A stretch of DNA of 64,000 nucleotides from Rhizaria sp. SCN 62-66 (GCA_001724265.1 MEDY01000022.1:62001-126000); one strand, 5' to 3'. Positions 8,737 through 47,436 are shown, numbered from the stretch's first letter. A program made the numbers and translations. The notes: a model not told the origin generated them from the letters alone.

Positions 8737-9206
8737 ATGCCTTACGTTGCTACTCTCCGGGTACGTTGAGATCTCTTATTTTTTATGTCAGTCCGTTTCT
8801 TCACTGTTTCACCTACTTGCTCACTTGGGAATCTTCTTCTTCTCTGCACTTTCTAGATTGGTATGGGCTACAACGGCAACGCCGCTCTTTAGACCTACAT
8901 TAGCGACGCTGTTAAACGTGGTCAGATCAAGGAGTCCGGTGGCGTTATGAAGAAGGTACGTCACTTTGCGTTATCCCTTGTGTTTCTGTTTGCCATTCTT
9001 GAGGTTTCATCATCATGCTGCGTGAGCTCGCTCTTGTTCATCCATTGCTCTGAACTCATAATTGTTTATTGCTTCTGACTCTGTTGTAGGGCGTCTTTGT
9101 CCACTTTCATGACGAGGACTCTGGCGAGTCTGACGTCAAGGAGATCTCCAAGCTCACCGTGCCCGAGGCTGTGGCTCTCTTCGCCACCTTCGATATCGAG
9201 ATCTAA
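8737..9206 (+). CDS. Small 79-aa protein, three exons, one in-frame TAG; possible Sep15/SelM-like thioredoxin fold lacking Cys/Sec
   Basis: Exons 8737-8760, 8857-8955 and 9090-9206; both introns are GTACGT...TAG, phase 0. Translation MPYVATLRIGMGYNGNAAL[TAG]TYISDAVKRGQIKESGGVMKKGVFVHFHDEDSGESDVKEISKLTVPEAVALFATFDIEI, stop TAA. A further upstream exon (ATG 8631, intron 8654-8726) is possible. Not in the ORF track. Confidence 0.75.
8890..8892 (+). other. In-frame TAG codon (putative Gln) in exon 2 of the small gene
   Basis: GCC GCT CTT TAG ACC TAC. Weaker case, because this TAG could instead be an alternative in-frame 3' splice site. Confidence 0.55.
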
Positions 9207-9801
9207 GCGCCGAGCGGTGTTTCTACGTCAAAAGACATCATGCGTTGGCAGGTATCTTTTTTCACTTCGTGATCCGCTGATGGCGTTTGCGCCATGAGCT
9301 TTATCCGGGTACTGAGTCGAAACACCACGCTTTGAGCATGCTTTGTTACGTTTACTCGCCATCCCCCATAATCAAATACATGATATGAGTTTTTTGCAGT
9401 TTACTGAAATTTCGGAACAAGTATGTTCTTTTATATGAAAATTCACGATGAACATTTCAATTTATCTCTTACACAAGTGTCCCAACTGTTGCTTTCTTGA
9501 TGCGTAGGCTAACCAGCAGATAATCTAAGTTTAACTGTTAACACGAACTCGTACTTATGATCAATCATATTGCTACTGCCATATGTCTCTTGTCGTCAGG
9601 CGCAGCAGCATTCTCGCTGTCGGCTTCAGTCACCAACCCGGAGGCAGCCTTTATATTGTAAGCATCCGTGCCAACAGAAAAACCATTGCTTATTGCGAAT
9701 GATGGAGAAGAGCATGACATTGCTTCAATAATCTACGTATCTTGTATTAAATAAACTAAAGCGGAAATACATATCTACCAATTTGTTTGTGAATTCACCG
9801 G

Positions 9802-12800
9802 TCACTTTTTCTTATTCTTGTCGTCGTCCTTCTTCTTCTGCTGCGAGTGCCCTCCCGCCTCCGCGAGCCGCTCCTTGGCCTTGTCCAGCGCGCGCTTGCG
9901 CTCCGCCTCGCTCAGCGGCTTCATCGCCGCCGACCCCGCAAAACGGGACCGAGCGCGCTCGGCCTCGGTCGCGCTGCCCACGGTGCCGCTGCCCCACCCG
10001 GGCTTGTCGGCAGCGCGCACTACACTGGCCGTCGCGTTCGCGATCGCCGTCGCGCGGTTCGCCACCTCGGCGTCTCGCTCGCAACCGTGGAACAGCGGGT
10101 TGCGGTGCTCCACGCAGTACTCGCGCCGGCAGTGCTGGCACGGGTACCGGTTGTAGCTGCTCTTGGTCTTGCAGCCCGCAAGGCCGCACTGGCCGACGCG
10201 GAGCTCAGACAACACAGCGTCGATGTCGTCGTCATCGTCTGTGTTAGCCTTCTTTTTGCCAGACTTGTTCTGACTTGCCTTACTCGACGCCGCAGTATCT
10301 ACAGGCTCGTCGGCGTTGCTAGATTCAGGAACTGCCGCGACAACAGGGAGCGCGAGCAACGGGTGCGACAGCGGCCGACTCGGGTCACTCGGAACCAACG
10401 AACTAGAGACAGCAGAGGATGCCTGCTGGCGGATCGTGTAGCCAAGGCGGGACACGCCCTCAGCAGCGCCGGGCGCAGAGCCCAAGGCGCCGCCGCCGGT
10501 GAAACGGGACGCAACGGGTTTCGCTGCCACAGGCACAGCGGCTGGGGCAGGCTTTGCAGCGGGCTTGTGACTCGTTGCGATCGCAGTAGGCTTGGTAGCA
10601 GAGACTGGAGCAGGAGCGAGAGCGGCGGGTTTCGCAGTCGGTTCGGGGACAGAGGCTGGAGCGGTTTTAACGGTAACATCAGAGCTGTTCTCCTGGGCCT
10701 GTAATGTTACTAAGGCAAGCTGCTTCTCTTTAAGCTTCGCGAGGAACAGAGGACCCGCAGTGGGCTCCCCGACACTGGCACCGATGACGACAAACTGCAC
10801 CACAGGCGACCGATGCTCCTCCGCAGTGTGAGCTGCGTTCGCGCTATTTGCTGCAGCGGCAACGCCAGCGCGCGCGCGCAGCGACAGCGCCGCGTCGACC
10901 GCAGTGTTCATGTCTGCGTCGCTCTTGACCATGCGGCCGCGGTGCGTGACCTTGAGCACGCCAGCGGGAACCCCCGTCTGCGCAGAGACGCTGTGCAGAA
11001 ACTCACCGAAGTTAAGCCGCGTGACTGGGGCGTGGAAGAAATAAGCCGAGTCAGAGTCGGTGCCTTGCAAAGAGAGCGAATGCGCCGCGGCGTACTCGGC
11101 TGCTGTGACAGCCGAGACTGACACAGCGGAAGTTGCTGCGTTGGCTGTCGCAGCAGCTGATACTGCAGCGATAGCAGGGATCGCGCTCAGACTGCCCGCG
11201 TTATCACTACTCTCGCTGCTGCTGATGACCTGCTTCGCAGTCGAGATCAAGTCGCAGCGCTCATCGACCACAAAAGGTGCCCACGGCGCGGCATCAGCGT
11301 CCTCTGCAGCGGCCGCTTCAAGACAACTGCTGACGCCGCCGGCGCCCACTGCCACGCCGGCGTAGGTGCAGCCGTTGGGCAGCGGCACGCGAGCCAACGC
11401 AGCGTTTGAGAGTCCTACCTGCGTGTTAGCCTTGGCGGACTTCTGGGCCGCCTTCTGCTCCTTGGTGACAGGGCCGGCGGCCGAGGGCGCAGTGTACCAG
11501 GAGCTCTTGCCCTTAGAACTCGCACCAGTAGCCGCTGCGTTGGTTCCATCAACAGATCCAGATGTCTGAACAGAAATCGCGTTGAAGCTCGAGACTGCGA
11601 CAGAGATGTCTTCGACTAACACAATGTCGTTCTTGACAGACTCTGCGGCCGCCGCAGCCACAGATGCCGCTGACGCCGTCGCTGCCGCGGCAGCAACGGC
11701 AGCTGCAGCCTCCGCAGCCTCCTCCGCGGTGGCGCAGCGGCGCGGCGCCGAGAGCGGGACCGTGAACTTGAGCTTCCCCCAGGCGACCTCTGCGTACGGC
11801 ACGAACGACACGGCGCGCTTTGCAGCCGCCGCGGCCGCAGCGGGGTCGGGGGACTGCGGCGGGCGCAGCGGCAACTGGCAGAGGCTGCCCAACGCAGCCG
11901 CTGCGGCGCGCGTGACCGTGGCCGGCGGCGGGGGAGTCGCAGGGCGTGCGGCCCGCGCGGCGGCATCGGCGGCGGCGCGCTTGGCGGCAGCGGCCGCCTC
12001 GTCGGCGAGACGCTGCTGGTCGGCGGCGGCGGCAACGGCGGCGAGCGCGGCAGCGGCGTTGTAGACGGGGACCTCGGTGTAGCCTTCGTCTCCGGCGGCC
12101 TCGGCCTCGGCGTGCCGCTGCTGCCACTCAGGTACCGCGGGCTCCTTGAGCATAGAAGTTGCATAAGCGGCGGATACAGCAGTGGAGTTAGTTGCTGTTG
12201 CAGAGACGTCAGTCGGAGCATCCTCCGGTTTAGACGTAGCATCGCTAGACACAGGCTCAGGTGTTGACACCGAAGCCTTGCTTGTTGCATTCAGCGCAGT
12301 CGTTGCAGCGGCAGCCATATCGACAGCTTGCTGCACCTTACTCTTCGCCGCATCGTAAGCAGCTGTCTCTTTGCTACTGTCTGCGTCCTTGCTCTTATCC
12401 TTATCGGAGAGAAAGCTGCCGTCCATCACAAACAGCTCGTCTGCAGTACGCACCTGGCCGTGCTTTTGCGAGTACTCGACAATGCCTTCGAGGAACTCAG
12501 AACAGCCGATCGTGTCGGAGTCACCCACGACGACGATGGCGCGCTTGGCACGGGTGATAGCGACGTTCATGCGGCGCTTGTCCTCCAGGAAGCCAACCTC
12601 GCCGTGCTCGTTGGAGCGCACCATCGAGACGAGGACCAGGTCCTTCTCGCGGCCCTGGAAACCGTCGACGGTGCCGATCTCGAGCCCCTCGGCGATAAAG
12701 GGCGCCAAGTACGCGCTGGCCTTGAGCAGGCGCACCTGCGCGCGGTAGGGCGTGATAACCGCCACACGCGACGGCAGCAGGTTGAACGACAAAAAGTGCA

Positions 12801-15800
12801 GCAGCAGAGTCACGACGACGGAGGCTTCGGCGGTGTTGGACCGGGAGACGTTCAGAGGGCTGCCACCGGTCTTGTTGCCATCGCTTTTCGCGGCGCTAAC
12901 TTCAGGCGCGGGCTCAGGGAAGTCTTCGGCGTCGGTCGCGGCGAGAGTGCGAGCCCTCGCAGCAGTCGCAGTTAGCGGCACGCTGTCCTCGCCCGCGCCC
13001 TGTTCTGCAGTCGAGTCGCTCTTCGCTGTCGCAGCAGCTGACTTCGCAGCAGGCGCGGCGGGCTTGCCCTTGCGCGCACCGGCAGCAGCAGCGCCCTTTT
13101 TACCCCCGGGACCTGCAGCACCGGCGGACGGCGCGCTGGACTTGGCGCCCCCGGCCCATCCGCAGCGCTCGTGCCACTCTTTAAGCTGTGGAAGCACGCG
13201 CACGCCGCGCTCGCCGTCAGCGCCGACGCGGCCCGCGACGCCCGCACCGCCCTCGCTGGCCAACTCGTCCTCGTTGGCGCCCGTGCCGGCCGTGTCGACA
13301 AAGATCCACGGGACGCGCAGACACGACGGCTGGTCCGCGCCGCGCTGCCGCACCGAGGCAACCTTCTTGCCCTGCGTCGTGTAAGCGACGGTGGGCGCGT
13401 CGAGCGCCAACGTCCGCGGGCCTGCTACGCCGGGGATCTGGTGCAGAAGCCGCGCGGCGACGGGTGCGGCGGCCTTGAGCTTCCCGCCGTAAAGCGCGTG
13501 GCTCGACCAGCGCATGATGTCGGCGTGCATACGGTACTGCACCGAGAGAATCGTCGCAAATCGCCCTACAGTCGGCGAGCAGCGCGGGACCACGCCGGAG
13601 GTACCGAAAAACGCCTTGCCCTCCGGGGTGGAGACACCGTCTGCGGACCGCATGACCCGTTCGAACAAAGTCACGCCGAAGCCCTTTGCGAGCGCGACGT
13701 CAGAGAGGATCGTGGGCGGGAGCTGCAGGTGGTCACCGGCTAGTACAAGGCGGGGAGCCTGCAGCAGAGGGATCAAACAGGCGATTTCGAGCGCTTGCGC
13801 AGCCTCGTCGATGACGACGACGTCGAAGATGCAGTTGCGCACAGCGTAAGAGCGTGCGCCCGCACAAGTCGTCACTACAACGTTGCTGCACGCAAGCACG
13901 CGGTTCACGGAGCGCCTACTCACCTTCTTAAGGTCGTCGGACAGCGCGCGGACCTCTGTGCGTGCCTCCCGCATCTCCGCCCTGGCCTGCGCGCTGGGCG
14001 CCTGCTTCTTGGCGGTGGCATAGCGCTTCTCGGCCTTGGCCAGGTCGCTGCGCAGCGCGGCGACCACGGGCCCGTCGTCGCTGGACGCAGTGAGGTGGTC
14101 GAGGCTGTGCGCAACGACGTCGGGCGTCAGCCGCGCCGGGTGGCCCACGCGCACAACCGACACGGGAATCGAGCCCAGCGCCTCCGCAACGCCGACATTG
14201 CCGCCGGCCGCCGCGGGCGCGGACGCGGCAGTGGCGTTGCCCTGCGTGGCACCCGCGAGCGCGAGCAGCGACGCCACGGCGGCAGCGCCCTCCGCGGGGG
14301 TGATGGCGGCCAGCGCGGCGGAGTCGACGGCGTGCTGCTCCTGCGCGGTGAGGGGGACCGGCGCCTCGGGCAGGCCGGCGCAGACCCAGCGGGCGAGCGG
14401 GATCAAGCGGGGGTCCTCGTCGAGATCATCGGTGACTCGGGGCGGCTTGATTTCAGCGCCCCCGTCGAGAGAGACGGAGTCAGCGGCCGCGAGCAGGGCG
14501 TTGGCCTTGCGGACAGCGCGCAGCCAGTGCGGCTGCGACATGGGCTTATGCAGGACACCATCGTACAGACTTGCGAGCGCAGTGCGCTGGACGGAAGTTA
14601 GGCCATAGGCGTCGACAGCATTAACATCGACTGCATTGCCGTCTTCCTCCGCTTCTTCGTCTGCCTCAACGTCGTCCCCTCCATCGGCATTCGCATCACC
14701 GTCATCTTTCTTACTCGCAGCGGAGGCAGCGGCAGAGGCAGCAGCAGCGGCGGCAACCGCGGCGGCCGCAGCGGAGCGCTTGAACCGCGCCGCCGCGTTG
14801 GCGAGGGCGGCCGTCTTGCGCTTCAGGTTGCGCGCGCGCTGGGCCTGATGCGCAGCGTTGCCGCCGTAGTCGCTCACGATGCGCTCAACGATGTTGTCCG
14901 CGGCCACGTTTGACGGCGCGCAGGCGAGCACGCGGAGCCCCCGGGCGGTGAGCTGCGCGATCAGCTCGACGACCGCGGTGGTCTTGCCAGTGCCGGGCGG
15001 TCCGTGAATGAGTGCGACGGGCGATTGCGAGGGGTACGGTGAGGGGCTGTAGGGCCCGGTGACGTTGGACGGCCGCAGCGGGGGCGCGAGCGCGCGCGAG
15101 ATGGCAATCAGCTGCGGCGCATTCAGCGGGCGCGTGGGGAACCAGCGCAGTGAAGTGGCCGTCACGGCTGCCTCGGCGGTAGGCGCAATGACTTCGGTGT
15201 CGATGTCGGCCGCCAGTGGAGGGGCCGTGCTCGCGGACGCCGCGGTGGCGGCGCCGGTGGCCGTGGTCGTGGCGGGGGTAACGGGCGTGTTCTCGCCCCA
15301 ACCCCACTTGTATGATAGGAGGTCGGCCTGGTGGGTTACTGTGTCGCGCAGGGCCTCGAGGCGAATCGCGTCACGCTTGCTATCCGCAACCACTGCAGCT
15401 GTGCTAGTATTGTCAGTCTTAGACTTTGCGTCGGACTTCTTCTTCATTTTCGCCTCAAGCGCTGTGAGCTGAGTCGCGACGGCGGCCAGCCCTGCGTCCT
15501 CAACGGCGCGCGTGCTTGGGTCGCCGACTGCGGTGCCCTTGAACAGCACGTCGATGACGGGGCGCGCGCGGGCCTCAAAGTTGGTATAGTCGCTCTCGAG
15601 CTGCGCCAGCACGTCCGAGTAGGCACGAAACGTCACATCATTGCCGGACTTGTAGATCGTGTAGGTGTAGCTCGACGCGTTGCTGTTGTCGCGAGTACTG
15701 GAAAAGCTCGCCAGGGTCTGCGACAGCGGACAGGATGCGTTGATGACGTCGAAGCAGACTGTGATGGAGTTGGCGTCTGTGGTGGTGACGACGCCGTTGG

Positions 15801-16305
15801 AGAATGACTTCGCGACGTTGCCGGACGCGGCGGACACGTTCGCAGCGAGATCTTTGCCCGTAACGGGCGCGTCGGCCTTCTGCACGCCCGCGGCGACCTC
15901 CATGGCGTGCTTGCGCCTGTCCCAGCGCGAGTCGTCATCGGCGCCGGCGGTGGACATCTGCGGCAGCGGCGTGCCGGTGATGCACACCTGCGCCAGGTCG
16001 CGCGTCGAGAACGAGTGCTCGTTGCCGATCTCCTGCGCGCTGGTAAAGGTCACGTGCGTGCGCCCGTACATGTCTTTGTGCGTGGCGGTGACGGCGAGCT
16101 TGGTGACGCAGAGGCCGTCTAGCACGAGCGAATGCTGCGAATTGTTGGCCAGCGTGTCCAGCTCCTTCGTAAGCTCCTCGAGACGCTCAACGTTGACGAG
16201 CTCGCGCATGTGGGTAGTGTAGTCCTTCAAATCAAATGGCTTTGCTGCCGCCGGGGCATCGGATGCTGCCGAGGAAGGCTTTGCCGATGTCTTTGATGTC
16301 GACAT
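9802..16305 (-). CDS. IGHMBP2: IGHMBP2/SMUBP-2-like SF1B (Upf1-like) helicase with C-terminal AN1 zinc finger (2167 aa, intronless, long low-complexity insertions)
   Basis: Motifs in order: HGPPGTGKTT, ACAPSNVAADN, VRVGHPAR, FDVVVIDEAAQALE, LAGDHLQLPPTI, TLFER, LSVQYRMH, FVDTAG, SRSNTAEA, VITPYRAQV, TVDGFQGREKD, VRSN...VGFLEDKRRMNVAITRAKR. AN1 finger CGLAGC...CQHCRREYCVEHRNPLFHGC. Stop TGA. Confidence 0.92.
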   Translation of the reverse strand: MSTSKTSAKPSSAASDAPAAAKPFDLKDYTTHMRELVNVERLEELTKELDTLANNSQHSLVLDGLCVTKLAVTATHKDMYGRTHVTFTSAQEIGNEHSFSTRDLAQVCITGTPLPQMSTAGADDDSRWDRRKHAMEVAAGVQKADAPVTGKDLAANVSAASGNVAKSFSNGVVTTTDANSITVCFDVINASCPLSQTLASFSSTRDNSNASSYTYTIYKSGNDVTFRAYSDVLAQLESDYTNFEARARPVIDVLFKGTAVGDPSTRAVEDAGLAAVATQLTALEAKMKKKSDAKSKTDNTSTAAVVADSKRDAIRLEALRDTVTHQADLLSYKWGWGENTPVTPATTTATGAATAASASTAPPLAADIDTEVIAPTAEAAVTATSLRWFPTRPLNAPQLIAISRALAPPLRPSNVTGPYSPSPYPSQSPVALIHGPPGTGKTTAVVELIAQLTARGLRVLACAPSNVAADNIVERIVSDYGGNAAHQAQRARNLKRKTAALANAAARFKRSAAAAAVAAAAAASAAASAASKKDDGDANADGGDDVEADEEAEEDGNAVDVNAVDAYGLTSVQRTALASLYDGVLHKPMSQPHWLRAVRKANALLAAADSVSLDGGAEIKPPRVTDDLDEDPRLIPLARWVCAGLPEAPVPLTAQEQHAVDSAALAAITPAEGAAAVASLLALAGATQGNATAASAPAAAGGNVGVAEALGSIPVSVVRVGHPARLTPDVVAHSLDHLTASSDDGPVVAALRSDLAKAEKRYATAKKQAPSAQARAEMREARTEVRALSDDLKKVSRRSVNRVLACSNVVVTTCAGARSYAVRNCIFDVVVIDEAAQALEIACLIPLLQAPRLVLAGDHLQLPPTILSDVALAKGFGVTLFERVMRSADGVSTPEGKAFFGTSGVVPRCSPTVGRFATILSVQYRMHADIMRWSSHALYGGKLKAAAPVAARLLHQIPGVAGPRTLALDAPTVAYTTQGKKVASVRQRGADQPSCLRVPWIFVDTAGTGANEDELASEGGAGVAGRVGADGERGVRVLPQLKEWHERCGWAGGAKSSAPSAGAAGPGGKKGAAAAGARKGKPAAPAAKSAAATAKSDSTAEQGAGEDSVPLTATAARARTLAATDAEDFPEPAPEVSAAKSDGNKTGGSPLNVSRSNTAEASVVVTLLLHFLSFNLLPSRVAVITPYRAQVRLLKASAYLAPFIAEGLEIGTVDGFQGREKDLVLVSMVRSNEHGEVGFLEDKRRMNVAITRAKRAIVVVGDSDTIGCSEFLEGIVEYSQKHGQVRTADELFVMDGSFLSDKDKSKDADSSKETAAYDAAKSKVQQAVDMAAAATTALNATSKASVSTPEPVSSDATSKPEDAPTDVSATATNSTAVSAAYATSMLKEPAVPEWQQRHAEAEAAGDEGYTEVPVYNAAAALAAVAAAADQQRLADEAAAAAKRAAADAAARAARPATPPPPATVTRAAAAALGSLCQLPLRPPQSPDPAAAAAAAKRAVSFVPYAEVAWGKLKFTVPLSAPRRCATAEEAAEAAAAVAAAAATASAASVAAAAAESVKNDIVLVEDISVAVSSFNAISVQTSGSVDGTNAAATGASSKGKSSWYTAPSAAGPVTKEQKAAQKSAKANTQVGLSNAALARVPLPNGCTYAGVAVGAGGVSSCLEAAAAEDADAAPWAPFVVDERCDLISTAKQVISSSESSDNAGSLSAIPAIAAVSAAATANAATSAVSVSAVTAAEYAAAHSLSLQGTDSDSAYFFHAPVTRLNFGEFLHSVSAQTGVPAGVLKVTHRGRMVKSDADMNTAVDAALSLRARAGVAAAANSANAAHTAEEHRSPVVQFVVIGASVGEPTAGPLFLAKLKEKQLALVTLQAQENSSDVTVKTAPASVPEPTAKPAALAPAPVSATKPTAIATSHKPAAKPAPAAVPVAAKPVASRFTGGGALGSAPGAAEGVSRLGYTIRQQASSAVSSSLVPSDPSRPLSHPLLALPVVAAVPESSNADEPVDTAASSKASQNKSGKKKANTDDDDDIDAVLSELRVGQCGLAGCKTKSSYNRYPCQHCRREYCVEHRNPLFHGCERDAEVANRATAIANATASVVRAADKPGWGSGTVGSATEAERARSRFAGSAAMKPLSEAERKRALDKAKERLAEAGGHSQQKKKDDDKNKKK

Positions 16306-16895
16306 CGCACAGCAAAGCTAACAGTGAATTAGGCGAGAGAATCAAGGATGGAGTAGAGCTTAGATGTGAGAGTTAGAGCATACAATTACATATTCGAACT
16401 GGTATATACATTACACATCGAATAATATAGCATATATATCATTTAACAGAGTATATGACACATAAACAACAATGCTAATTCGGAATCAAATGACTGCTGT
16501 AGTCGTGATGTTCCGTGTCGCAAAACAGCACTTGTGGCCAGATCTATAATTCGACGTATACATCGCGATAAAAAGGAATATAGATACGCTATGCGCTTTT
16601 ATGAACTGTAATGTTTGGAATCAATGCCGGATTCAAGTACCAAGACCATCAGGCATCATTAAAGCATGTACATCTTGAGTGTACGTTCAGTTGCAACCTA
16701 TTGCTGTGATGATCGTTCGTCTAAAAAATGTGGACGTATGCTTTGAATTAAACATCAATAGTGCAATAATGGCAAATGTGGAGAGTAAATTAATTGTATG
16801 ATCTGTGTAAGCTAATTCAGTAGTGTTGGCTAAGTAAAAAATAATGATCAAAGTCATCATACAATAGTGAAGTAACATGTAACACAGCGCCACAT

Positions 16896-17070
16896 TTACT
16901 GTTGATCATCTTCTTCATTCTGTTCAGACATGAAAGCAGGCAATGCAACCGACCACTCTGGGTGCACCCCGGTTCCGGCATCAGAGCGCCTAGAACGAGA
17001 CGCCTTGGTGTTTTTTTCGCTTTGACGACTTTGCTGCAAACTCGCCTGAGGCTGCACGAGCCCGTCTTGA

Positions 17071-17116
<46 letters not shown>

Positions 17117-35100: not shown

Positions 35101-38093
35101 TAGATCGCGGTGTGCGGTGTCGCCGTCAGCTGGCTCGCCCGCGCGCCGTGCGTCGCGACGGCCTGCGAGAAGACCATCGCCAGGTCCACGGTGTCATGCG
35201 GCGCCGTATACGTGGAGTCAGAAAGAATGTAGATGTTGGCCGGGATGGCGACTGTGGCGGAGAAAAAGGTCAGTCGCGCGACGTCTAGCAGCTGATTTTG
35301 GTGCACAAATCCGTGCGTCGTCGGTGCAGTGTGGCGCTTGTTGGACTCTGCAGCGTTCTTGCCTGTGCTGTTATTGGCAATGCTTTGATCTTCTATCGGA
35401 CCCAGCAATGTGGGGCGGAATTGTGCGCTGGTGTACGTCACATCAGTGTCATCCTTCCTGTCATGAAGCTGTTCGCGTTCGATCTTGCCCTCCTCGGAGG
35501 CATCGCTGTCGCTGTCACTGTCGCTGCCATTGTTGTTGCCGGCATCCGTGAAGTCGGCGTCGTCGGAGTCGTCGGCGCAGTCGGCGATCTCCGGCAGCGC
35601 GATGACCTTGCTGCCGAGCGCGTGCACGTCGAAGATCCGCACCACGCTCAGCACGCGCGCGGCCACGGCGCGGTGCACGGTTGCGCGGAGCGCGTGGTGC
35701 CACTGGAAGTGGGCCGCCAGCAGCACCGGCAGCGACACAAGACCCGCGCCATGGGGCTTGTTCACCAGAGCGGCTTGGGTCACGGGAGATGACGATGAAG
35801 ACGACGCAATCGAACGAGTCAGTGGGAGACGGAGTGTCGTAGCGAATAGCAATTGCGCAGCGCGCAAGTGGCGCAGCCCCCCGCGTAGCGACCGTGGTCC
35901 GCTAGCATTAAACGCGGCGAATGACTGTGAACACGCGTTGTAATACGCAATCGCAGCGTTCATAGCGTCAGCAGCCGTCGCAGGAACAACTGGCACGAGG
36001 CACACATCGTTGCGCGCAACAATAGCGCCGTCGGCATTCACTGTCACCGTATCTGCCGCACCAGTCTGCGCATCACCACTCGCACGTGCACCCGCCCCCG
36101 CAGCAGGGGCAGCGGCGTTGGCAACCAAGGCCTCAGAGGCGGCGACTGTGAGTCTGACCGGCGGCAGCGAGCGCAGCACCGGGTCCGCGGCCACGTTGTC
36201 CACGGCGGGGCGCCACCACAGCGGCAGTCGCAGTTCAGCAGCAGCAGCAGCAGCAGGAGAGCAACTGTTGTTGCACTTCTCCTCCTCACTGTGATTCGCA
36301 TTAGCGATCACAGACTTAGCGTTGGTGTTGGCACCACCGGTCGCAGCAACGGCGGCGGCGACCTCTCTGGTCGCCGGCGCCACCGCGGCCGAGACAGAGG
36401 CCGACGCGAAGCGCAGCGCCACTTTGAGGGCTTCGACGCGCGCGCGCTCGGCGGCCACATGCGTGCGCAAAGCGGCCAGCGCGGCCTGACTTTGGAGCAT
36501 AACGACCTGACTTTGAGACAGTCGCGGACTCGCCACAGTTTTGTTAGCCTGCCTGTCCTCATTAGTTGCATCAACAGTCGTTTTAGCCGCTATCCTGGCC
36601 TTGAGGGCCGCAAGCGTGGCCTCCGCCGCGTCGGCCTTAGCCTTGATCGCAGCGGCACGGCGCCGCGTCTGTGCCAGCGCCACCGTCTCCGCGTCGGCCT
36701 GCGCCTGTGCGACGGCCGTGCGGGCAGACAGCTCGGCCAAAGAGCAGGCCCAGTCTGATAACACACTGGGCTTGACGAACACAGCGGGTTCCGGCGTCAC
36801 AGCCGGGTGCGCGGGATCGACATAGCCGATCGCCGCAGTCTGGGTTGTGGTCTTGGACGTATATGTGGCGGCCGCGGGCCCGCGACCAAAGAGCGAGGCA
36901 AAGCCGTCAGCGCCTGAGCTGATGTGGGCGAAGTTAAAGTATGGCTTAAAGGTCGACGGGTGCGGAAAGGGCGCAATCGCGTTGTTATAGATGGTGTTGC
37001 TGTTCAATTTGATGTTGAAGCTCATTCCATCAGTACGCGGCGTCAGGTCGGCAGCGCCATTGACGACGTTACTATTGTTGTGCGCGTTATTAAGGCCACC
37101 GGGAGCGAACGTATTGGCAAACGGTGCAAACGCCGAGTTGGGAGCTTGCACAAACCCACCAGTGGCGTGCGTTTGCTGCATAATAGGACTAAAGAACTCC
37201 GCATAGTTCATCTCGTGCGGCTTGAAGAAGTCCTCGTTGACGTGCGTCGGGGTCAAGACGGAGTACGACGATGACGGCGCCCGCTGCTGCTGTTGAGACA
37301 ACTGAATTTGTTCGTACTCGTGTTGCTGCTCGCTCTGCAGTTGCTGTGGCGAGGGCTGCGGTTGCTGTTGTTGCCGTGTGTTGTAGTTCGAGTTGGAGCT
37401 CGGGCTAGAGCTGGGTACGGCTGCCGTAGCACTGCTACGTGTGGTGGTGTAGTTGTCTGCATTTGATCTTGACGCAGGGCCACGAGCTGAGCCAGCATCA
37501 GACTGTCCAGAGGCAACAGCAGGAGTAGCAGCGTTCGAGTTGCTGTTGCTGCTTGCAGGGGGGCGTGCGGGTCCGGCAACAACAACAGCAGCTGCAGCGT
37601 TTGCCGCTGCAATACCTGCGATGTTTGCGTTGATTGCGGTCTGGTGAAACACGTCATGCGGCACTGGAGCCATCACTCCCGCCGTCGCGCCCTCAGTTGT
37701 CAGTGTGAGCGCAGCCAGCAGCGGCGAGTGCTGCGGCTGCACATCGACTGCAGCGTGTGTTGCTGTCGCGGTGTTGTAGTGATGTTGGTGTTGAGAAAGC
37801 GCGAAGACGACGGCAGGTGTGTCGTCCTCATACACGGAGGGGACGACGTCGACGGCAGGGGAGAAACCGTCGCTGTCGCTGGGGTTAACGGTGAGCGCGG
37901 GGAACACGCCCGCAGTCCGCCCCGGCACAGCGAGCCCTGAGACTCCCACTGGCGAAGGTGCTGTGGTGGCCGCAGTGTTGACTCCGCCACTGGCAGCACC
38001 GCTAGCGGCCGACGCTGCAGCGACGGCTGGCGACGATGGGGCAGGTTGGGACGCGGCAGGCAGGCCACTATGGCTAGGCCCAACAGGCTGCAT
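16896..38093 (-). CDS. Giant uncharacterised protein, ~7065 aa, one reading frame containing four in-frame TAG codons
   Basis: ORF-track segments 32211-38093, 25092-32183, 22545-25037, 18438-22469 and 16896-18239 share one frame. I translated the four gaps by hand: each is open and separated only by a single TAG. No AT-rich spacer or intron-like sequence lies between them. The frame ends at TAA 16898-16896, followed by AT-rich UTR. Ala/Ser/Thr/Gln-rich; no family recognised. Confidence 0.85.
17071..17117. repeat. (TGT/CAA)n coding microsatellite, poly-Gln in the giant ORF
   Basis: Perfect tgt run on the + strand, read as CAA repeats on the minus strand. Confidence 0.95.
18438..18440 (-). other. 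In-frame TAG codon (putative Gln)
   Basis: Context ...HGHNQ[TAG]YSDPNYYG...; frame stays open to 16896. Confidence 0.8.
22545..22547 (-). other. In-frame TAG codon (putative Gln)
   Basis: Context CTA CAG CAG TAG CAG CAA CAT = LQQ[TAG]QQH, inside a poly-Gln run. Confidence 0.85.
25092..25094 (-). other. In-frame TAG codon (putative Gln)
   Basis: Context RQQLQQQSS[TAG]RQHANNSNKQTKPQRPATVAVQIPQQ; frame continues. Confidence 0.8.
32211..32213 (-). other. In-frame TAG codon (putative Gln)
   Basis: Context CAG CAG CAC TAG CAG CAG CAA CAT CAG CAG = QQH[TAG]QQQHQQ. Confidence 0.85.
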
Positions 38094-39140
38094 ATGATTT
38101 AAAGCGGTGGGAGCAAGCCCGAAGGCTGCTGTACGCTGTAAAGGGTGAAGTGACTGGGGTCGGTCTCGGTGGGAACGCTCTCAAGAGACTCCAGCAAAGG
38201 CGATTACAAACCTATAACAACCACAAATAAAAACAAAACAATAAACTTCAGCAACAAAGTAAATACACAAACGTGATAAGCTTGGTTTTTTGCATACACT
38301 TGAAATATTCAAAGAGCTTGGCAGCAAAGACAGCAAGTGGGAGTGTAGGCCAAAGTTGAGTCTGAATCTATCATCTTTCCTGTATGATAGTGAGACCTCT
38401 GAGTAGTTTTAAGCAATGGTGCAAATACATCGAGCCCGTATTAGTCGTGTATATGTGATATCAAGTTATTGCCCGAGATTACGGATCCTGCGTCGTACAA
38501 CTCGTGATGTTTTGAGTCACACACACGACCAATCCGATCTTGTGGTGTCGCTGTCTCATCCTGGCTGAAGTAATCCTTTTAGTCGTCATCGCCGTGTCAA
38601 CGACGGCGCGCGCCCACCGCCAGCCTGCCGACTGAGCTGGCGCGAAGGGCCCCAAGACAACCTTACCTCTAGCGGGGCATCCTTGCACTCATTCTCTGCA
38701 CGAGGCAGCTTATGGTTTTGTCTTTAATTGACGTGCAAATTTTAAATGCACCTGTTAGATTCTCTTTCAATTGATTTCTTGGTAAAAATTGCTGGTTGGA
38801 GCGCACTAAATGACTTCTTGTGGTGAGGGGCTCAAGGAGAAGCAATTTCCCCCCTCACCTTCATATCAAGCCCGTCTTGTGTCATCCAAGAGCTCGATAT
38901 GGTCTCATGGCGATTTTCGCAACTAATACCCGCTTGCATATATTGCGTTATTAGCTCACGTGCCGCGTTCATCCCGCGTTGAGGCATGTACGTTCGCTTT
39001 CCTCTCTTTTCGCTCATAACAAACCCACGCTCCTTCCGTACTGTTCTCTTTCTTAACTGCACCTGTTCCGCGTTAATCAAGGCGCTTGTCGCATCAAGTA
39101 ACAGAAAAGGAGTGTATTCGCTTTTCTTTCTGTTTCGAAC

Positions 39141-42100
39141 ATGTCGGCCCCCAAGGAGCGCGCTCGTGTCGAGGTACGTCTATCCCCTCCCAGAACTACT
39201 CACACGTGCGTTATTCCACTCCATCCCGCTCTTATACGCTCATCCCACTGCTCTAAATCAATTGATTCGTATGCATCGCCTCTTCTTGTTGTTGTATTTT
39301 CGTTATCACAGTACGACTACTCGCCGCAGTACCCTAACAGCGATGAGCTGACCCTCAAGGTAGGTGACATCGTCGAGATCGTCTCCCGCGAGAACGAAAC
39401 CGACGGGTGGGTCACCGGCTCCATTAACGGCCGCCTCGGTGTCTTCCCGGGCAACTACGTTAAGACGCTCCCGCCCGCGGGCGCCGCGCCGCCGCCGCCG
39501 CCGCCGATGCCGAAGCAGGCTGTGGTATCTGCGCTGCCCGTGGTCTCCTCGGAGAACGTCAAGATCACGCTCGGGGGCGCCTCGCCGCCGCCGCCGCCGC
39601 CCTTCCAGCAGCAGCAGTCGCCGAAGTCGCCCGTGGGCTCGACTGCGCAGGGTATCCCGATGTCGTCCAGTACCAGCAGCGGACTCTCAGTCTCGTCCTC
39701 GACCAACGCGGCCTCGCCCGTCGGCTCCAACGTCCGCCTCGGCGGCAACGACAACGTGCGCCGCCGCCAGACGCTCATTGGGCTCTACGCCCACTACTCG
39801 GCCATGATGTCCGGCTCCTTCTACTGCCTTACGGGCCTCGGGCTGCTGCTCTGGGGCGCCTGGGGCTTTTCCCCCTCGCCCATCTACGACGACCACGCCT
39901 CGCCCCCCGCGTTCGACATCCTCGACGCGTGCGTCGGCTTCTTCGCCTTCTTCTGCGGCTTCGGCATCCTGCTCTACGAGATCCGCTACGGCAAGGCGCG
40001 CGGCGGCGTCTCCCGTGTGCCCTGGCGCGGCATCCTCTACGTGCTCGCCGGCGTGCCCGGCTGTTTCGCGCTGCCCACCGCGATCGGCGCAGGTACGCTT
40101 TTCGTCTCGGCTATTCCTAACTTCTACTCGTCCTACCTCGGCGAGTTCTACCGCCCGCCGCTGCCGCCGCGCAAGCCGGCGGCGGGCAAGGCCGGTGAGG
40201 ACGTCATGGAGGGCTTCTCGCGCGGCTCGCGCTGCCTGGCGCTCTTCGGCGGCCGCAACCCCGACAAGCAGGTGAGCCGCATCGTGTTCTTGGTTGCCTA
40301 CATCGCGGCCAACGTTATCGTCGGTGCCTTCAACGCCAAGAACGCCTATGACGCGATCCAGACCATCAAGGACTTTAACGACGACAACCAGCGCAACCCG
40401 AAAATCCCCCCCGTGGCCGACAAGCAGTACATGACCTACTGGGTCTGCGTGGCCAAGTTCTTCGGCGGCATGATGAACCTCAACTACTCGATCATCCTCA
40501 TCCCCGTCGCGCACAGCGTCATCCGCTGGTTCGTCGACAACTCGCGCACGCGCACGTGGTATTCGTACATCATCCGCGGCATCCTCTGGTTCTTCCCCGT
40601 CGATGACGCCATCAAGCTCCACAAGCTCATCGCCTGGACGGCCTTCGCCGCCGCGATTGGCCACACCGTCGCGCACCTCTTCAACTACGTGCAGAAGTCG
40701 CAGCTGGTGTGGGACACCTTCGGCCCGGGCATCTGGGTCACGGGCATCCTGCTCGTGCTCATCATCTTCACTGTCTACCCGGCCACGCACGTCAACGTCA
40801 AGCGCGGGCACTTCGAGATCTTCTGGATTACGCACATGCTCTACGTGCCGCTCTTCGTGCTCACGCTCATCCACGGCAAGAACATGATCGGCCCCAACTA
40901 CTGGAAGTTCTTCATCGGTCCCGGCGTCATCTACCTCGGCGAGCGCATCTACCGTGAGGTTGCCACCCGCAAGCCCGTCAACGTCATCTCGGCCACGTTC
41001 ATGTCCAACTCCGTGCTCTCCCTCGTCGTCGCCAAGTCCGGCGCGCTGGCCAAGTACACCGAGGGCCAGTACGCCTACATCTGCTGCCCCGCCATCTCGG
41101 GCCTTCAGTGGCACCCCTTCACCATCTCCTCCGCGCCCCAGGAGGACTGCGTCTCTTTCCACATCCGCGTTCAGGTACGAGTTTCAGAACGACATACTCA
41201 GAATTCCCTGTGTGACTATATTTTAATTGTGTTTGTATCTCTCGATATCTACTTTTGATTTCTCAAAGCGACAGTATGTCCTTCATATCTTTTTTTATTG
41301 TAAAATCTGACTCATTTTAGGACCGTGGCTCGTGGACGTTCAAGCTGCGTGAGTTCTTCCGCGTGCTCGGCGCCGGCACCAACAAGGCGTGCCTGAAGCT
41401 GGCCCACCTGGAGGACGGCCGCGCCGTGCCGGGCCTTATCGACGGCCCCAACGGTCTGCCCCTGTTGCGCATCCACGGCCCCTACGCGGCGCCCACGCAG
41501 CACTTTTGCGAGTACAACGAAGTCATGGTCTGCGCCTCAGGCATCGGCGTGACGCCGCTCGCGTCGGCGCTTAAGTCGATCGCGCACTTTCGCTGGCGCT
41601 TCTCGCTTGACCGCGCGTTCCCGGACTCGGCCACGTTCATTTGGGTCGTCGCCCACAAGGAGATCCCCTCGTTCCGCTGGCTTGTCCGCACCATCAAGGA
41701 GGCCGAGGACGCCGTGCTGAACCTCCAGTCCAAGGCGTCCAAGGAGAACAACAACCGGCGCATTAAGTTCCGCATCTTCATCACCTCGCACAGCAAGACC
41801 GAGACAGAGCGCTATCTGCGCCTCAAGGAGGAGGAGCGCAACGCTGAGGACGCCGGACTTTGGGGCATGCCCTACGCCAGCAACGACACCGTGTCCAAGC
41901 TCTCGGTCAACTTCACCGAGCAGCAGCTGTATGACGCGCTGATGAGCCCCAAGGAGGGCACGCAGACGTTCGGCAACGTGCTTATCACGCTCGGCCGCCC
42001 TAAGTGGGACGAGATCTTTGGTGCCGTCCAGGACACCACCGCCGAGAAGGACGTCGGCGTCACCTTCTGCGGCAACCCGCTCATCGGCTCCGACATCAAG

Positions 42101-42172
42101 AACGCCTGCCTCAAGTTCTCCCACAAGGACAACGGCAAGATCAAGTGGCACCTCCACAAGGAGGTCTTCTAA
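39141..42172 (+). CDS. NADPH oxidase (NOX/gp91phox family) with N-terminal SH3 and fused p22phox-like domain (~915 aa)
   Basis: Exons 39141-39173, 39312-41174 and 41321-42172. SH3: ARVEYDY...DELTLKVGDIVEI...DGWVTG...GVFPGNYV. Haem His pairs KLHKLIAW...IGHTVAH and FEIFWITHMLY...LIHG. FAD motifs QWHPFTISSAP, HIR, GSWT. NADPH motifs HGPYAAP, SGIGVTP, FIWV, GRPKW, VTFCG, HKEVF. Stop TAA. Confidence 0.93.
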
Positions 42173-42810
42173 GGCGTTCTCTTTTACTCTTTTAGAGCTA
42201 GTGGAGAACAGTCTCTCGAGTACAAGTAACTTAAGCTTTCTTTTGCGTCAAACACGGATTAACCTCATTATTTGACAATGAACTCGGTCTGCCTGACTGC
42301 ATCTGTGCGTCATTCATATTCATGAGGCTGATGCCGCAAGACGCGTAAGGCTTTTATCTCTTACTGTTTTTTTTTATTTTCCTTCTTCACGTTTGTTTTG
42401 TATACTTTGTTGTTTTTGCTGTTAATCTTTTCGGGTTGATTTTGCTTTTTATTCCTTCACTATCCATATCTCCTTTTCACTTTTACAACAAGCGATTGGT
42501 ATGCATTTCGTCATACAATCAGCCCCACTGTTGTGGCTGATGTGCGTTTTGTGTGGATGAATCGATTACCAACTCATCACAAGTTTTCCTTTTACTCATA
42601 CTACTCGTTGTTTGATAAAGAATACTAATATAATATAACCATACAAATATTCAGTATTAGACAATAACATCTCCGAACACTTCTTCTTTAAGTTGACCGA
42701 CTGACGCTTTTTCAAGTTGTTGTTGCTTTTAGTCACGTAACTTGAATCCTTCTGCAAGCGCACTTACCGTCGTGAAAGCGAGGTAATATCAGGCGGACTA
42801 TCAAGAGAAT

Positions 42811-44490
42811 ATGACTCTCTTGCTCGTGTGCCTCATGCTCCTGCAGATTGTGAATGCTAGCAGCTTGTTTAATTCTTTGCAATTCAGCAATTCACAACAG
42901 CAGCAGCCGCAGCTTCAAGAACACTTCTTTGATCGACGCGCCACGTTTCAAAACATCAACCCATCGCAGCATCAGCAGCAAATCGCCCTTGCATAGCAGT
43001 CTCCGCAGCAACGACAGCAGCTGCTGGACCAACAACTGCAGCAGCAGCAGGCACAACAGCAAGCGTCAAAAGAGATTCATCAGAACCCTCAGGGCCCCAT
43101 GCCGAGGCTGCGGCCGGATACAACCTCTGGACTCGATCTCTGTTATGCGTTAGTTGATACAAGCTACAGCGCACCGCCGGTGCTTGAAATAGCCGGACGT
43201 GGGCCATCGGTGTACACAGCTCCCAGCTACGGTGGCTACGGCGGCTCCAATGGCGGCAACGGGCTGGTGAGTAGAGGCGGCAGTTTGCAAGGACAGATTC
43301 CGGTGCAACAAATGCCGCAACAGCCAATTCAGCAAAGTCTGCGGCTTGGTATACCGTTTTCATTTGAATATAGTGGATACAAGCCGCTATCTCCACTATC
43401 AAGCGTGTCCAACGATATTTTAACTCGAATCAACTTGCTATCGTCGAGCGAACTGTCACAAACGCACACGTTCGTGACTCAGCAACAGCCGTATCAATCA
43501 TATCCTCTGCAGCAACAACAGCCCTATTACCAGCCTGCTCCGACTTACCCTGTTAAACAGCCGTCGTATCAAAAACCGGCGCCGCCTGCAGTCACCGCGA
43601 TCTCTGGTTACCGAGGCACGTACAACAACTACGGCCCTCCCATCCAGTACTACCACGGCGACGGATATGGCTACGCTGATGCAACGTATGAGTTCTCGTA
43701 TCTACCAAAGTACGACTATTACCAGCCGCCGACTTACACACCGCCGCCGCAACCCACTTACTCTCAGCCGCAGTCGGCATACGGAAGCAACGGCGGGTAC
43801 AGTAGCGGAAGCTACAACAGCGGCGTCCCGCAGTCCGGAGCGCAGCCCATCATCGCCGAGGCGAGCGACGTCGCCGACGTGTACTGGGCGCAGGAGCGGC
43901 TGCACCAGCTGGACCGGCAGCGCGTTGTAAATGATGCCGCGGGCGTGGGACAGGGGCTGCCGCAGACGCGCCTGATGGGGCAGGGCATCGGGGTGCGGCG
44001 CTTTTCGCTTGACACACCAGCGCCAGCAACTCATCCCCAGCTTTTTTTGTCCGGACACGGCACGAACACGCTTGCGGTGTCATATGGCGGCGCTCCAGCG
44101 ATGTCCTACGGCAAGGGTCTCTCTTCGTCCAAGGGAATGCAATCCTCTCAGCAAATGCAGCAGCTGCAGGGTAGCACGTACATCGGGGACAAGCCAAGCA
44201 CGTACACTGGCAGTAGCAACACAGGGATGCACTATGGCTACAACAACGCATACAGCGGCGCAAATAGCAACTACAATGGTTACAGTGGTTCCAATAGCTA
44301 CAGCGGCGGCTATAATACGCCACAGTACACGACAGTCCGACCCATCGAAGAGTTCCGAATCCCGTTCAACACCGGCGGGGTAATGGTGGGACGCAACGGG
44401 CTCGGTGGCAGGGATGCGGGCGGCAGCAACAACTGGGGCATCAGGTCAGAGTTCAACGACGGCAACTCGTGGGGGTGGGGAATCAACTGA
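42811..44490 (+). CDS. Secreted Gln/Tyr/Gly/Pro-rich protein (559 aa) with one in-frame TAG
   Basis: ORFs 42811-42996 and 43099-44490 are in the same frame and joined across TAG 42994-42996; the gap reads QSPQQRQQLLDQQLQQQQAQQQASKEIHQNPQGP. N-terminus MTLLLVCLMLLQIVNA looks like a signal peptide. Stop TGA. Confidence 0.8.
42994..42996 (+). other. In-frame TAG codon (putative Gln)
   Basis: Context SQHQQQIALA[TAG]QSPQQRQQ. Confidence 0.8.
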
Positions 44491-44953
44491 GTCATCGTGA
44501 AGATATCACCATTGATCGTATCTCATAGAAAGCGATCCAGGTATGATATCTAGATTGTTGAATGCATTGTACGTATGCAATAATGTGTGAGTGTGTATTT
44601 TGTGAACATCACAAGGAATAGGAGGCCTTTTTTGTTGTTGCTTAGAGCAACTTGTGACTGCAATGACGAGAGTTCACGAATAAATTATGTGTGTTTGAAG
44701 ACAGAAACAAGACTGAATATTGATTAGCATGCATTTCTACATATATGCATCCTACTGCTCACTAGAACTGTTAGTTACGATGTGTTGTACTGGATGACTC
44801 GTCGAAAAACTACGAAAGCAGCGAGCTCACTCTCACAAAGCTAAAACAAGGCACAGATCGCACAACACCGCCAATCACCGAAATATCACAACATCGGGGT
44901 GATGATGTACACTGCTTCGACTGCTTTGTGATGTCTCATCGACAAGTGTAGTC

Positions 44954-45689: not shown

Positions 45690-47385
45690 TCAAACAGCGC
45701 CGCCCGTGAACCGCTTAGCACGGTCTCCCTTGGCCTTCTCCTCTTTGAGTTTGTCGATCTCGGTCTTGACGGCATCCAGTTGCTTCCCCAGCGCCGCAAC
45801 ATGACCCTTAAGCGTCGCCTTCTCCTCCGCGGGCATCTCGGCGCCCGCGGCAAGGATCTTCTTGGCGATCTCTTTGCGCTTCTCGATGATGGTCGACATA
45901 AACTGGGCCTTGGAGAGGATGTTGCGGTCGACGGCAGCGAAGTACTCCGCAGTGCCTGCCGCGCGGGACACGGCGCTAGGGCCAGCGCCCGCAGCAGCAG
46001 CAGCACCAGCAGAGCCAGGGCCGCTCTTGAAGCCAGGCTTCGCAGTCGCAGACTCACTGTCGGGCGCAGCGGCAGCGGCAGCGGCGGCCTGAGGAGCGGC
46101 GGCGGCGGGCTGGCCGTCAGTCATCGACGGCTGTCCATCACTCGTCATGCCCATCGGACCCCCCGGCTGGCCGTCACTGGCGACACGGTTCGCAGCGGCA
46201 GAGGCGGCGCCAAAGGGCTTCTTGCCGGGCTTGAAGTGACCGTGGGCACCGTGGGTTCCCTGCGCACCCGCGGCGGCGGCGGCGGCGAGCGCCTGCTGCT
46301 GCATCATGGCCATCATCTGCATCTGCTGCTGCTGCTGCAACTGCTGGATTTGCTTCTTGAGCTCAGCGACCGCACTAGCCTCCTTGTCGCCAGAGGAATG
46401 CCCCGCCTGCTTACTATGAGGGCCGTGGTTGTAGTGCTGGTCACGGTCACTCCTGTCACGGCCACCGCCCTGACCCCGCTGTTGCTGCTGCTCACGGTCA
46501 CCCTGACTTCGCTGCTCACGGTCACCTTGCCGCTGCTCACGGTCAAACCCCTGCTCGCGCTGCCACCCAACCCCGACGCCCGCGATGCCCGCCAAAACAA
46601 GCCCGGTCGCACCAGCAGCGCCCGCGGCAGCGCCGGTGGCAGCGGTGACGCCGGCCTTGACGCCGCCGTTGCCGTCCGCGATGGCGCCGAAGCGCGCGCC
46701 CTCGGCCGCCAGCGCCCGCAGCGCCTGCTCCGCGGCCACGCGCGAGGTGAAGGTGACCGTGAGCGCGCGGCCCGACGGCGCGGGCCCGTGGGCGGCGACG
46801 CCCGGATACCGCGCCGACACCGCGCCCGCGATCTCGCCCAGCGAGGACAACGACTGCGAGGCCGGGTGTCGCGCGAAGTAGGACTGCGGCAGCGAGAAGC
46901 GCAGAGTGCGCGCGTTGCCGTTGTACTCCAGCGCCCCCGTGCTGCCGCCAGAGTTGCCGCCCGCGCTGCCGCTGACGGTGCTCTCGCCGCGGCCACTGTA
47001 GCTCTCGCTGGGGATGTCGTTGTGGACGCTGAAGGTTTGGGGGCCGTCGTTGGCGATGGTGTTCTTCTTGACAACAATACGGCGACGAGGCGCTCCGTCA
47101 TCGGCCGCACTGGCGCCGCCAGAGTTGTTGCTCGATGCGGCGTGTGCGTCGGTGGAGTCGGAGCCAAACGCAGCGTGCACGGCGTTCGCACCTGTGTTAG
47201 CGCTGCTCGCGTTGGGGCCTGCGTTGGAGCCTGCGGCGGTCTTGATGCTGCGGCCGCTGCCGGCTGCGGCTGCACTGGGACCGCTCGCGCTCGTGTTGCC
47301 TGAGATAATGTGCGAGTCGAGAGTGGGGGTAGCGCGGACGGGGGCAACGCGGCCAATGCCAGAGACTGCGGACTGAAACAGACGA

Positions 47386-47436
<51 letters not shown>

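Follow-up and report, generated by a model that had tools for sequence, protein, structure and literature searches.

Does a codon that stops translation in the standard code specify an amino acid in the organism that carries this locus? The locus, referred to throughout as the window, is a contiguous stretch of 64,000 nucleotides (nt) from Rhizaria sp. SCN 62-66 (GCA_001724265.1, MEDY01000022.1:62001-126000), and six TAG triplets lie within reading frames of its genes. The original prediction took these triplets to mean that UAG is a sense codon, probably for Gln, while UAA and UGA stay stops. All six TAGs are present and in frame at the positions it gave, and the peptide contexts and next codons that it quoted (CAG, CGA, CAG, TAT, CAG and ACC) are correct. 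Its placement of the TAGs in three genes holds for five secure sites in two genes and is weakened for the sixth, at 8890, where an alternative intron of 132 nt makes the TAG ambiguous. Across several samples the in-frame TAGs are fixed; the frame continues past them, and no visible gene ends in TAG. We consider it probable that UAG is a sense codon in this organism, whatever the amino acid, and we place the narrower claim, that UAG is sense and also means Gln, evenly between acceptance and rejection.

Reading frames that continue past TAG

The secure sites and the two genes that carry them are as follows (an asterisk in a peptide marks the TAG).

16896-38180, minus strand: giant frame of 21.3 kb and 7,094 codons with a terminal TAA, interrupted by four TAGs alone
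32211-32213, minus strand: TAG in frame in the giant gene, QRQQH*QQQHQQ, next codon CAG, GC 0.68 over ±90 nt
25092-25094, minus strand: TAG in frame in the giant gene, QQLQQQSS*RQH, next codon CGA
22545-22547, minus strand: TAG in frame in the giant gene, TLQQ*QQH, next codon CAG
18438-18440, minus strand: TAG in frame in the giant gene, WHGHNQ*YSDPNYY, next codon TAT
42811-44490, plus strand: secreted-type gene rich in Gln, Tyr, Gly and Ser, ending in TGA, with a TAG at codon 62
42994-42996, plus strand: TAG in frame in the secreted-type gene, QHQQQIALA*QSPQQRQQ, next codon CAG

Within the giant open reading frame (ORF) we count four TAG, no TAA and no TGA in frame, and the 5,100 codons past its first TAG remain open. 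Because the other two frames of the same stretch hold 134 and 268 TAA and TGA triplets (TAG/TAA/TGA counts of 17/19/115 and 52/77/191) against none here, the frame is open far beyond chance; selection keeps it so, with TAG as the sole 'stop' that it tolerates. The encoded protein, with 0.63 G or C at third codon positions (GC3), is of low complexity and rich in Ala, Ser, Thr and Gln; a few cysteine-containing stretches look folded. It is an orphan: it has no Pfam family, a scan of JGI metagenomes returned 596 pattern matches and 0 relatives, and a search of 5.8 billion proteins, in which low-complexity words may have displaced true relatives, recovered only its own two pieces (P0001 and P0002) among 8,000 scored candidates. 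The secreted-type protein likewise has no Pfam family and no detected relatives. Upstream of its TAG it begins with a sequence that, judged by eye, resembles a signal peptide, MTLLLVCLMLLQIVNA, and its Gln-rich composition continues through the TAG.

Over the 16,999 confident codons of the window there are 6 TAG, 0 TAA and 0 TGA. TAG is thus rare, with a share of 0.035% among all codons and of about 0.7% among the presumed Gln codons, and it is confined to weakly biased genes (GC3 0.63-0.65), none being found in genes with GC3 of 0.77-0.87. We also scored the 147 TAGs of the window that are flanked on either side by 40 codons free of TAA and TGA, one training segment (45693-47650) being out of frame. 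The TAG at 18438 obtained the top two-sided coding score, the six known TAGs all rank in the top 16, and the rest of the top 16 are opposite strands or other frames of known genes, so that the scan yielded no further in-frame candidates.

If the TAGs were nonsense mutations, changed from CAG, the giant and secreted-type genes, together with a gene of a related organism described below, would be recently dead or truncated alleles. The lack of a known family or of relatives for the giant and secreted-type proteins favors such a history, and TAG is the commonest one-step nonsense outcome: the giant ORF has 136 CAA and 19 CGA codons, 53-57% of its one-step paths lead to TAG, and a decay model gives four TAGs from four nonsense changes with P = 0.08-0.11. 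The earlier argument against decay, that many CAA and CGA codons are present without any TAA or TGA, is correct as to the absence of TAA and TGA, but on its own it is weak, given only 19 CGA codons and this probability. The companion argument, that the frame has suffered no frameshift, fares better. Nonsense changes are about 2.5% of substitutions in the giant ORF, so that four of them correspond to some 150 substitutions in all; even with one indel for every 20 substitutions, about 6 frameshifts are expected, and 0 were observed over 21.3 kb (P of about 0.002 or less). Decay is unlikely because so many implied substitutions have left no frameshift, and pseudogene decay, with four nonsense hits and no frameshift of any kind, is a poor explanation. 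It would also require that three separate genes were hit by TAG alone, and the TAGs at 25092 and 42994 are identical in contigs from other studies. We regard nonsense mutation as very improbable.

A different objection is that the TAGs never reach the ribosome: splicing of in-frame introns may remove them, RNA editing may convert them to CAG, or they may be assembly errors. The features that bear on introns are these.

41175-41320, plus strand: reference intron in the NADPH oxidase (NOX) gene, 146 nt, GC 0.32, GTACGA...TTTTAG
8737-9206, plus strand: small gene with exons 8737-8760, 8857-8955 and 9090-9203, then TAA
8890-8892, plus strand: TAG, either a codon of exon 2 in the small gene (NGNAAL*TYISD, next codon ACC) or the last three bases of an intron at 8761-8892

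Spliceosomal introns in the window are short and AT-rich (96-146 nt, GC 0.32-0.43 in the three measured), have the donor GTACG in 5/5 introns inspected, and often end in TAG. The surroundings of the five secure TAGs have a GC of 0.49-0.68 over ±90 nt, against 0.32-0.43 in those three introns, and consist of CAG, CAA and similar codons. The sole GTACG donor upstream of 32211 would define an 'intron' of 385 nt with a GC of 0.64 and a length that leaves 1 on division by three; the one upstream of 18438 would define an 'intron' of 178 nt with a GC of 0.50, also not divisible by three. There is no GTACG donor upstream of 25092 or 42994, and no GTRNG donor within 600 nt upstream of 22545. An in-frame intron is therefore excluded at five of the six sites, where the sequence is GC-rich, CAG-rich and coding in character and no consensus donor is available for an in-frame, AT-rich GTACG...TAG intron.

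The sixth site is the exception. The alternative intron at 8761-8892 has 132 nt, a GC of 0.43, a length divisible by three, the donor GTACGT and the acceptor CTCTTTAG followed by A. The small gene thus has two in-frame 3' splice sites 36 nt apart (8856 and 8892), and one choice keeps the TAG while the other removes it, so we leave this TAG outside the secure set. Its exons were searched one by one rather than as the spliced protein: they have no family in Pfam, searches of PDB sequences with both exons were empty, and so was the ESM Atlas for exon 3.

Assembly error is a poor explanation, given that two of the TAGs recur in independent samples. We compared sequencing runs over 20 kb (24900-44899); 22545 and 18438 lie outside this interval. 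The TAG at 25092 is unchanged, with 0 differences, in contigs of runs X3 (25055-26631) and X5 (25054-25298), as is the TAG at 42994 in contigs of runs X3 (42845-44899) and X4 (42144-43553), and these contigs come from three other studies. Among the rows of the four runs compared we found no variants at 25092, 32211 or 42994, no listed piece lying over 32211. Run X4 contains a closely related strain that departs from the window in the 20 kb at about 20 single bases and by one 2-base insertion (behind 39042), none of these changes falling at a TAG. As for editing, the polyA RNA run X9 contains short contigs in the giant ORF and in NOX, and among the listed pieces none lies over a TAG, a result that editing can accommodate; these contigs cannot prove transcription, and no listed piece has a joint at the NOX intron. 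Editing of U to C at several sites of a nuclear mRNA is not, to our knowledge, an established process. Removal of the TAGs before translation appears exceedingly improbable as an account of the set, the ambiguous site being the one that could be so removed.

Gene ends and a TAG within a conserved gene

If UAG is sense, genes should end in other codons, and 13 gene ends are visible in the window. Our recount agrees with that of the original prediction: TAA ends 7 of the 13 (the syntaxin-16-like SNARE gene, the small gene, the giant ORF, NOX, SDHAF1, the peroxiredoxin gene and the TmcB-like gene), TGA ends 6 (the helicase, two secreted proteins, the gene at 45690, an HExxH protein and PEX5), and TAG ends none. 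TAG is also absent from 5 gene ends in the related loci L001, L003 and L006. Taken by itself, the lack of TAG at 13 ends is suggestive only. One of these stops can be compared across organisms, because the TmcB-like protein has orthologues.

59507-59509, minus strand: TAA that ends the TmcB-like gene, at the C-terminus that its orthologues share

The TmcB-like protein of the window ends in ...FIVENYQGRE, and the orthologues P0123, P0124, P0125, P0126 and P0128 end at the same position, which in L001 and L003 is occupied by TGA. The TAA is a true stop because it sits at this conserved C-terminus, and UAA and UGA still terminate translation. The base that follows the true stops (13 gene ends, 8233-59509) is G in 10 cases, A in 2 and C in 1, and TAA supplies 7 of the 13 stops in spite of a coding GC3 of up to 0.87, a pattern that suggests strong selection on termination context.

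The TmcB-like gene also provides a TAG that can be placed in an alignment. We compared seven metagenome loci that encode TmcB-like relatives, the following features being the relevant ones.

56925-64000 of the window: PEX5 and TmcB-like genes, tail to tail
L001:90-7704: PEX5 and TmcB-like genes, tail to tail; the same arrangement is found in L002
L003:3536-3538: in-frame TAG in the TmcB-like gene, 224 codons before the conserved C-terminus

In a multiple alignment the TmcB-like proteins of L001 and L002 are each 56% identical to that of the window. Since the tail-to-tail arrangement is kept, these two loci come from true relatives, and microsynteny is conserved within an as yet unplaced lineage. 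Together they have no in-frame TAG in about 2,300 codons. L003 is more distant (TmcB-like identity 33%, GC 60%, GC3 0.9), and its TmcB-like gene does contain a TAG. Identity with the protein of the window is 33.4% over the 1,094 positions before this TAG and 33.6% over the 223 after it, conservation on its two sides is similar against five other orthologues too, GC3 is 0.91 on one side and 0.90 on the other, and there is no intron-like sequence around it. Separate protein predictions from ENA, Logan and JGI (P0129, P0342 and P0343) each stop at precisely this TAG; P0342 is encoded on a 45-kb contig. The triplet is present in three data sources, which argues against assembly error, and the equal conservation of the part beyond it argues against a truncated allele. 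No other single observation argues as strongly as the TAG of L003 for TAG being read through among these organisms.

The other loci add little on this point. L004, L005 and L007 have lower GC (51% in L004 and L005) and are uninformative; the apparent TAG 'stops' in L004 (at 16508) and L005 (at 16003) lie in or near GTAGC donor-like sites and say nothing about the code. The intron signals of L004 and L005 seem unlike the GTACG of the window, and GTAGC is possibly a variant donor. In the P0123 cluster, the TmcB-like gene is split into P0348 and P0347 by a one-base homopolymer frameshift rather than by a TAG; the split falls at a run of T (TTTTTT in L001, around 2040) and is probably a sequencing error. 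The early end of the protein P0130 is uninformative as well. The contigs of GTDB genomes yielded no relative, and a PEX5 search was dominated by bacterial TPR proteins, with 37% identity for the best PEX5-like match.

Altogether, the frame continues past an in-frame UAG at five secure sites of the window, spread over two genes, and at one site in a conserved gene of L003. The central claim, that UAG is translated while UAA and UGA stop, gains support from the independent samples, the exclusion of introns at five of six sites, the lack of any frameshift beside the four TAGs of the giant ORF, the conserved C-terminus that ends in TAA, and the TAG of L003.

The possible meaning of UAG and how it may be read

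Whether UAG means Gln has to be judged mainly from context. A Gln codon adjoins the TAG at four of the five secure sites, and two sites (QQ*QQ and QH*QQ) interrupt Gln runs that a Gln at the TAG would complete; in the proteins of the window the residue between two Gln is itself Gln in 108 of 199 cases. The bases that follow TAG also match those that follow CAG and CAA codons in the giant ORF, as detailed below, which favors Gln. A naive-Bayes context model over ±2 positions assigns Gln a value of 0.998; one of its training segments (45693-47650) was out of frame, and a variant trained on the TAG-bearing genes only is unaffected. The Gln assignment of the original prediction fits the Gln-rich contexts, but it has no aligned Gln column behind it, and the context models disagree.

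Several results, in addition to the decay probability and the RNA contigs given above, weigh against reading UAG as sense, as Gln, or both. The more conservative trimer model over ±1 position places His (0.47) above Gln (0.25). No TAG lies on an aligned Gln column, the proteins with TAGs in the window having no detectable relatives, and in the one column with an alignable TAG, that of L003, 8/9 homologues have Gly and 1/9 has Ala. Any TAG derived from CAG would show a Gln context whatever its meaning. The finding that none of 13 gene ends is TAG would have a probability of 0.02-0.12 if TAG made up 15-25% of stops. The tRNA with a CUA anticodon that the original prediction proposed as a check was not recovered, a search for tRNA genes having given 0 in the window and 0 in the seven loci, whatever the anticodon. 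Finally, the sample is small, consisting of two secure genes in one 64-kb window and one gene in a relative.

UAG could accordingly be sense and mean something other than Gln. Ala, Leu and Ser are candidates, their synthetases being indifferent to the anticodon, and so are Gly, Glu and His. The Gly and Ala column at L003:3536 and the failure of the ±1 model to rank Gln first point in this direction, and nuclear codes with UAG=Leu and UAG=Ser are described in PMC11687900 and PMC5304391. On the other side, QQ*QQ and QH*QQ interrupt Gln runs, and Gln far outnumbers every other residue there. The Gly column is a weak constraint, for L003 is a different organism and its protein is locally divergent near the TAG, where a nearby conserved Arg is lost too; for the same reasons this column does not refute Gln. 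With respect to Leu, UAG is frequent in the UAG=Leu code of the rhizarian exLh as described in PMC5304391, but it is rare here. We rate a sense codon with a meaning other than Gln as rather unlikely, though it deserves serious consideration; if UAG is taken to be sense, Gln is its likely meaning, with a confidence somewhat short of that which we attach to sense coding itself.

The code could also be leaky or ambiguous, UAG still terminating some genes while the sites seen here are efficiently read through with a near-cognate tRNA-Gln, much as in codes where context decides between stop and sense. The rarity of TAG and its restriction to weakly biased genes would agree with this, as would the bases that follow, C after TAG at 4/6 sites (C, C, C, T, C and A in order) where true stops are followed by G in 10/13, only 13 ends having been seen. 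C after a stop codon is the weakest termination context. The same excess of C is found after ordinary Gln codons, however: after CAG and CAA in the giant ORF the next base is C in 51% and G in 15.5% of cases, against 26% C and 37.5% G at first positions in general, so that C after TAG is no sign of a leaky-stop context. Four TAGs in a gene of 7,094 codons would each need near-complete readthrough to serve the 5,100 open codons downstream, and TAG accounts for 0/13 stops. We hold the leaky code to be improbable.

Programmed readthrough of the tobacco mosaic virus type, in which UAG is followed by CARYYA, shares with these sites an in-frame UAG that precedes an open frame, and CAG follows TAG at 3/6 sites. 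The hexamers after the six TAGs are CAGCAG, CGACAG, CAGCAA, TATTCT, CAGTCT and ACCTAC; none is shared and none is of the CARYYA type, which bears out the original argument that the differing 3' contexts speak against programmed readthrough. On the primary sequence we reject this mechanism, since four TAGs lie in one gene without a common 3' hexamer, the genes are cellular genes of two organisms, and the context is that of ordinary Gln codons.

Translation itself, the amino acid, and the changes in tRNA and eRF1 are inferred. In the reading that we prefer, UAG would be decoded as an amino acid by the ribosome, most likely Gln, with UAA and UGA as the sole terminators. A copy of tRNA-Gln(CUG) may have mutated by one base to CUA, so that it would read UAG but not UAA, by analogy with Iotanema as described in PMC5304391; alternatively, tRNA-Gln(CUG) may itself read UAG efficiently as a near-cognate codon. 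On the same analogy (PMC5304391), eRF1 would no longer recognize UAG well. Rfam gave no matches in the window or the loci, and the eRF1 gene is not within its 64 kb. The rarity of UAG and its confinement to genes with GC3 of 0.63-0.65 would fit a recent or weakly used assignment.

The organism, its neighbors and known UAG-only codes

The DNA of the window is eukaryotic, with an overall GC of 61%, a coding GC3 of 0.63-0.87 and spacers richer in AT. Besides the genes already described it encodes the syntaxin-16-like SNARE (STX16-like), an IGHMBP2-type helicase, an SH3-NOX NADPH oxidase, SDHAF1, a peroxiredoxin (Prx), PEX5 and the TmcB-like PAS protein. The NADPH oxidase (39138-42172, plus strand) has an SH3 domain N-terminal of its ferric-reductase, FAD and NAD domains and a single intron (41175-41320); we know of no SH3-NOX fusion elsewhere. 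The helicase (9802-16317, minus strand), at 2,171 residues, is roughly double the usual length and has long Ala-rich inserts and a C-terminal zf-AN1 domain. A searched 10 kb of the window was found in metagenomes from bioreactors, wastewater, activated sludge and microbial fuel cells; 11 metagenome rows, from 7 studies, contain part of it, and 4 contain half or more. In the DNA runs X1-X4, 77-100% of the sampled words are present.

These genes place the organism only loosely. The sole named match of the TmcB-like protein is Cafeteria, with 30% identity over 24% of the query. The best named matches of the helicase are Saprolegnia (50% identity) and Phytophthora (47%), followed closely by Amoebozoa, Heterolobosea, plants, Ichthyosporea, fungi and ticks, and in a quick helicase tree of 18 rows with long branches the window joins only the environmental sequences P0138 and P0141. 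A stramenopile affinity may be suggested as a weak lead only. The organism is not a fornicate-like anaerobe, since SDHAF1, PEX5 and Prx are present.

The nearest precedent in form is the fornicate Iotanema spirale, for which PMC5304391 describes a nuclear code with UAG=Gln and UAA and UGA as stops, with 204 in-frame UAGs in 126 genes and Gln in 22/28 hyperconserved columns. As in Iotanema, UAG alone would be exempt from termination, UAA and UGA are stops, no gene is seen to end in UAG, and the organism is a non-ciliate eukaryote. It differs in having 6 TAGs in about 17,000 codons, no Gln column, GC-rich DNA, and SDHAF1, PEX5 and Prx. For the uncultured rhizarian exLh, PMC5304391 describes UAG=Leu, with 71 UAGs in 8 conserved genes lying on Leu columns, and stops that are UAA and UGA (56 and 15 cases). 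Both are uncultured protists with UAA and UGA as stops and, here probably, a sense UAG, whereas UAG in the window is rare, stands in Gln-rich contexts and carries no Leu signal.

Among ciliates, PMC11687900 describes UAG-only reassignment, to Gln or Leu, in Protocruzia tuzeti and two phyllopharyngean lineages, and it lists Scotinosphaera as a further case of UAG-only reassignment. The known cases named by the original prediction (Iotanema, the rhizarian and ciliates) are valid, and the list is incomplete, lacking Protocruzia, the two phyllopharyngean lineages and Scotinosphaera (PMC11687900). If the amino acid is Gln, the table proposed here (TAG=Q, TAA and TGA stops) is identical to that of such ciliates. 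NCBI table 15, 'Blepharisma', is also a UAG-only reassignment. The window differs in belonging to a contig of at least 139 kb, with 61% GC, AT-rich intergenic DNA and GTACG introns of 96-146 nt, an architecture unlike that of ciliate macronuclear DNA, and its helicase joins environmental sequences only. Codes in which both UAA and UAG mean Gln (UAR=Gln, of the NCBI table 6 type) are described for Amoeboaphelidium protococcarum, ulvophytes, hexamitins and many ciliates (PMC6299283, PMC11687900). They share with the window a stop-to-sense change, probably to Gln, but such a code is excluded here, as TAA ends 7/13 genes, one of them at a conserved C-terminus, and occurs 0 times in frame. Gln is the usual meaning in the UAG-only codes described in PMC11687900 and PMC5304391. 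No report of this kind of code from a wastewater eukaryote or from a stramenopile turned up in a search of the full-text literature, with subscription journals and supplementary files outside its range.

If UAG means Gln, the code table is thus already known and the lineage would be new, and an independent case of UAG reassignment is plausible. It may even be that an unsampled, deep-branching, GC-rich clade of wastewater reactors, embracing the organisms of the window and of L003 (TmcB-like proteins 33% identical), freed UAG independently and is caught in early capture, perhaps for Ala or Gly, which would make a new nuclear code table; we think this larger proposal unlikely.

Gene callers that apply the standard code truncate the proteins of this organism at TAG, as public protein sets show: P0001 and P0002 each cover a part of the giant ORF, while the predictions P0129, P0342 and P0343 end at the TAG of L003. 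The organism recurs in the metagenomes of several studies, which brings its genome, tRNA set, eRF1 and metaproteomic peptides within reach. Nuclear codes that split the meanings of UAG and UAA are rare, those described in PMC11687900 and PMC5304391 being found in Iotanema, a rhizarian, Scotinosphaera and a few ciliate lineages. The window would, if the reading of UAG as a sense codon is true, add an independent origin in a non-ciliate, aerobic, GC-rich organism, and the rarity of UAG in it could show early codon capture, a stage that is seldom observed.

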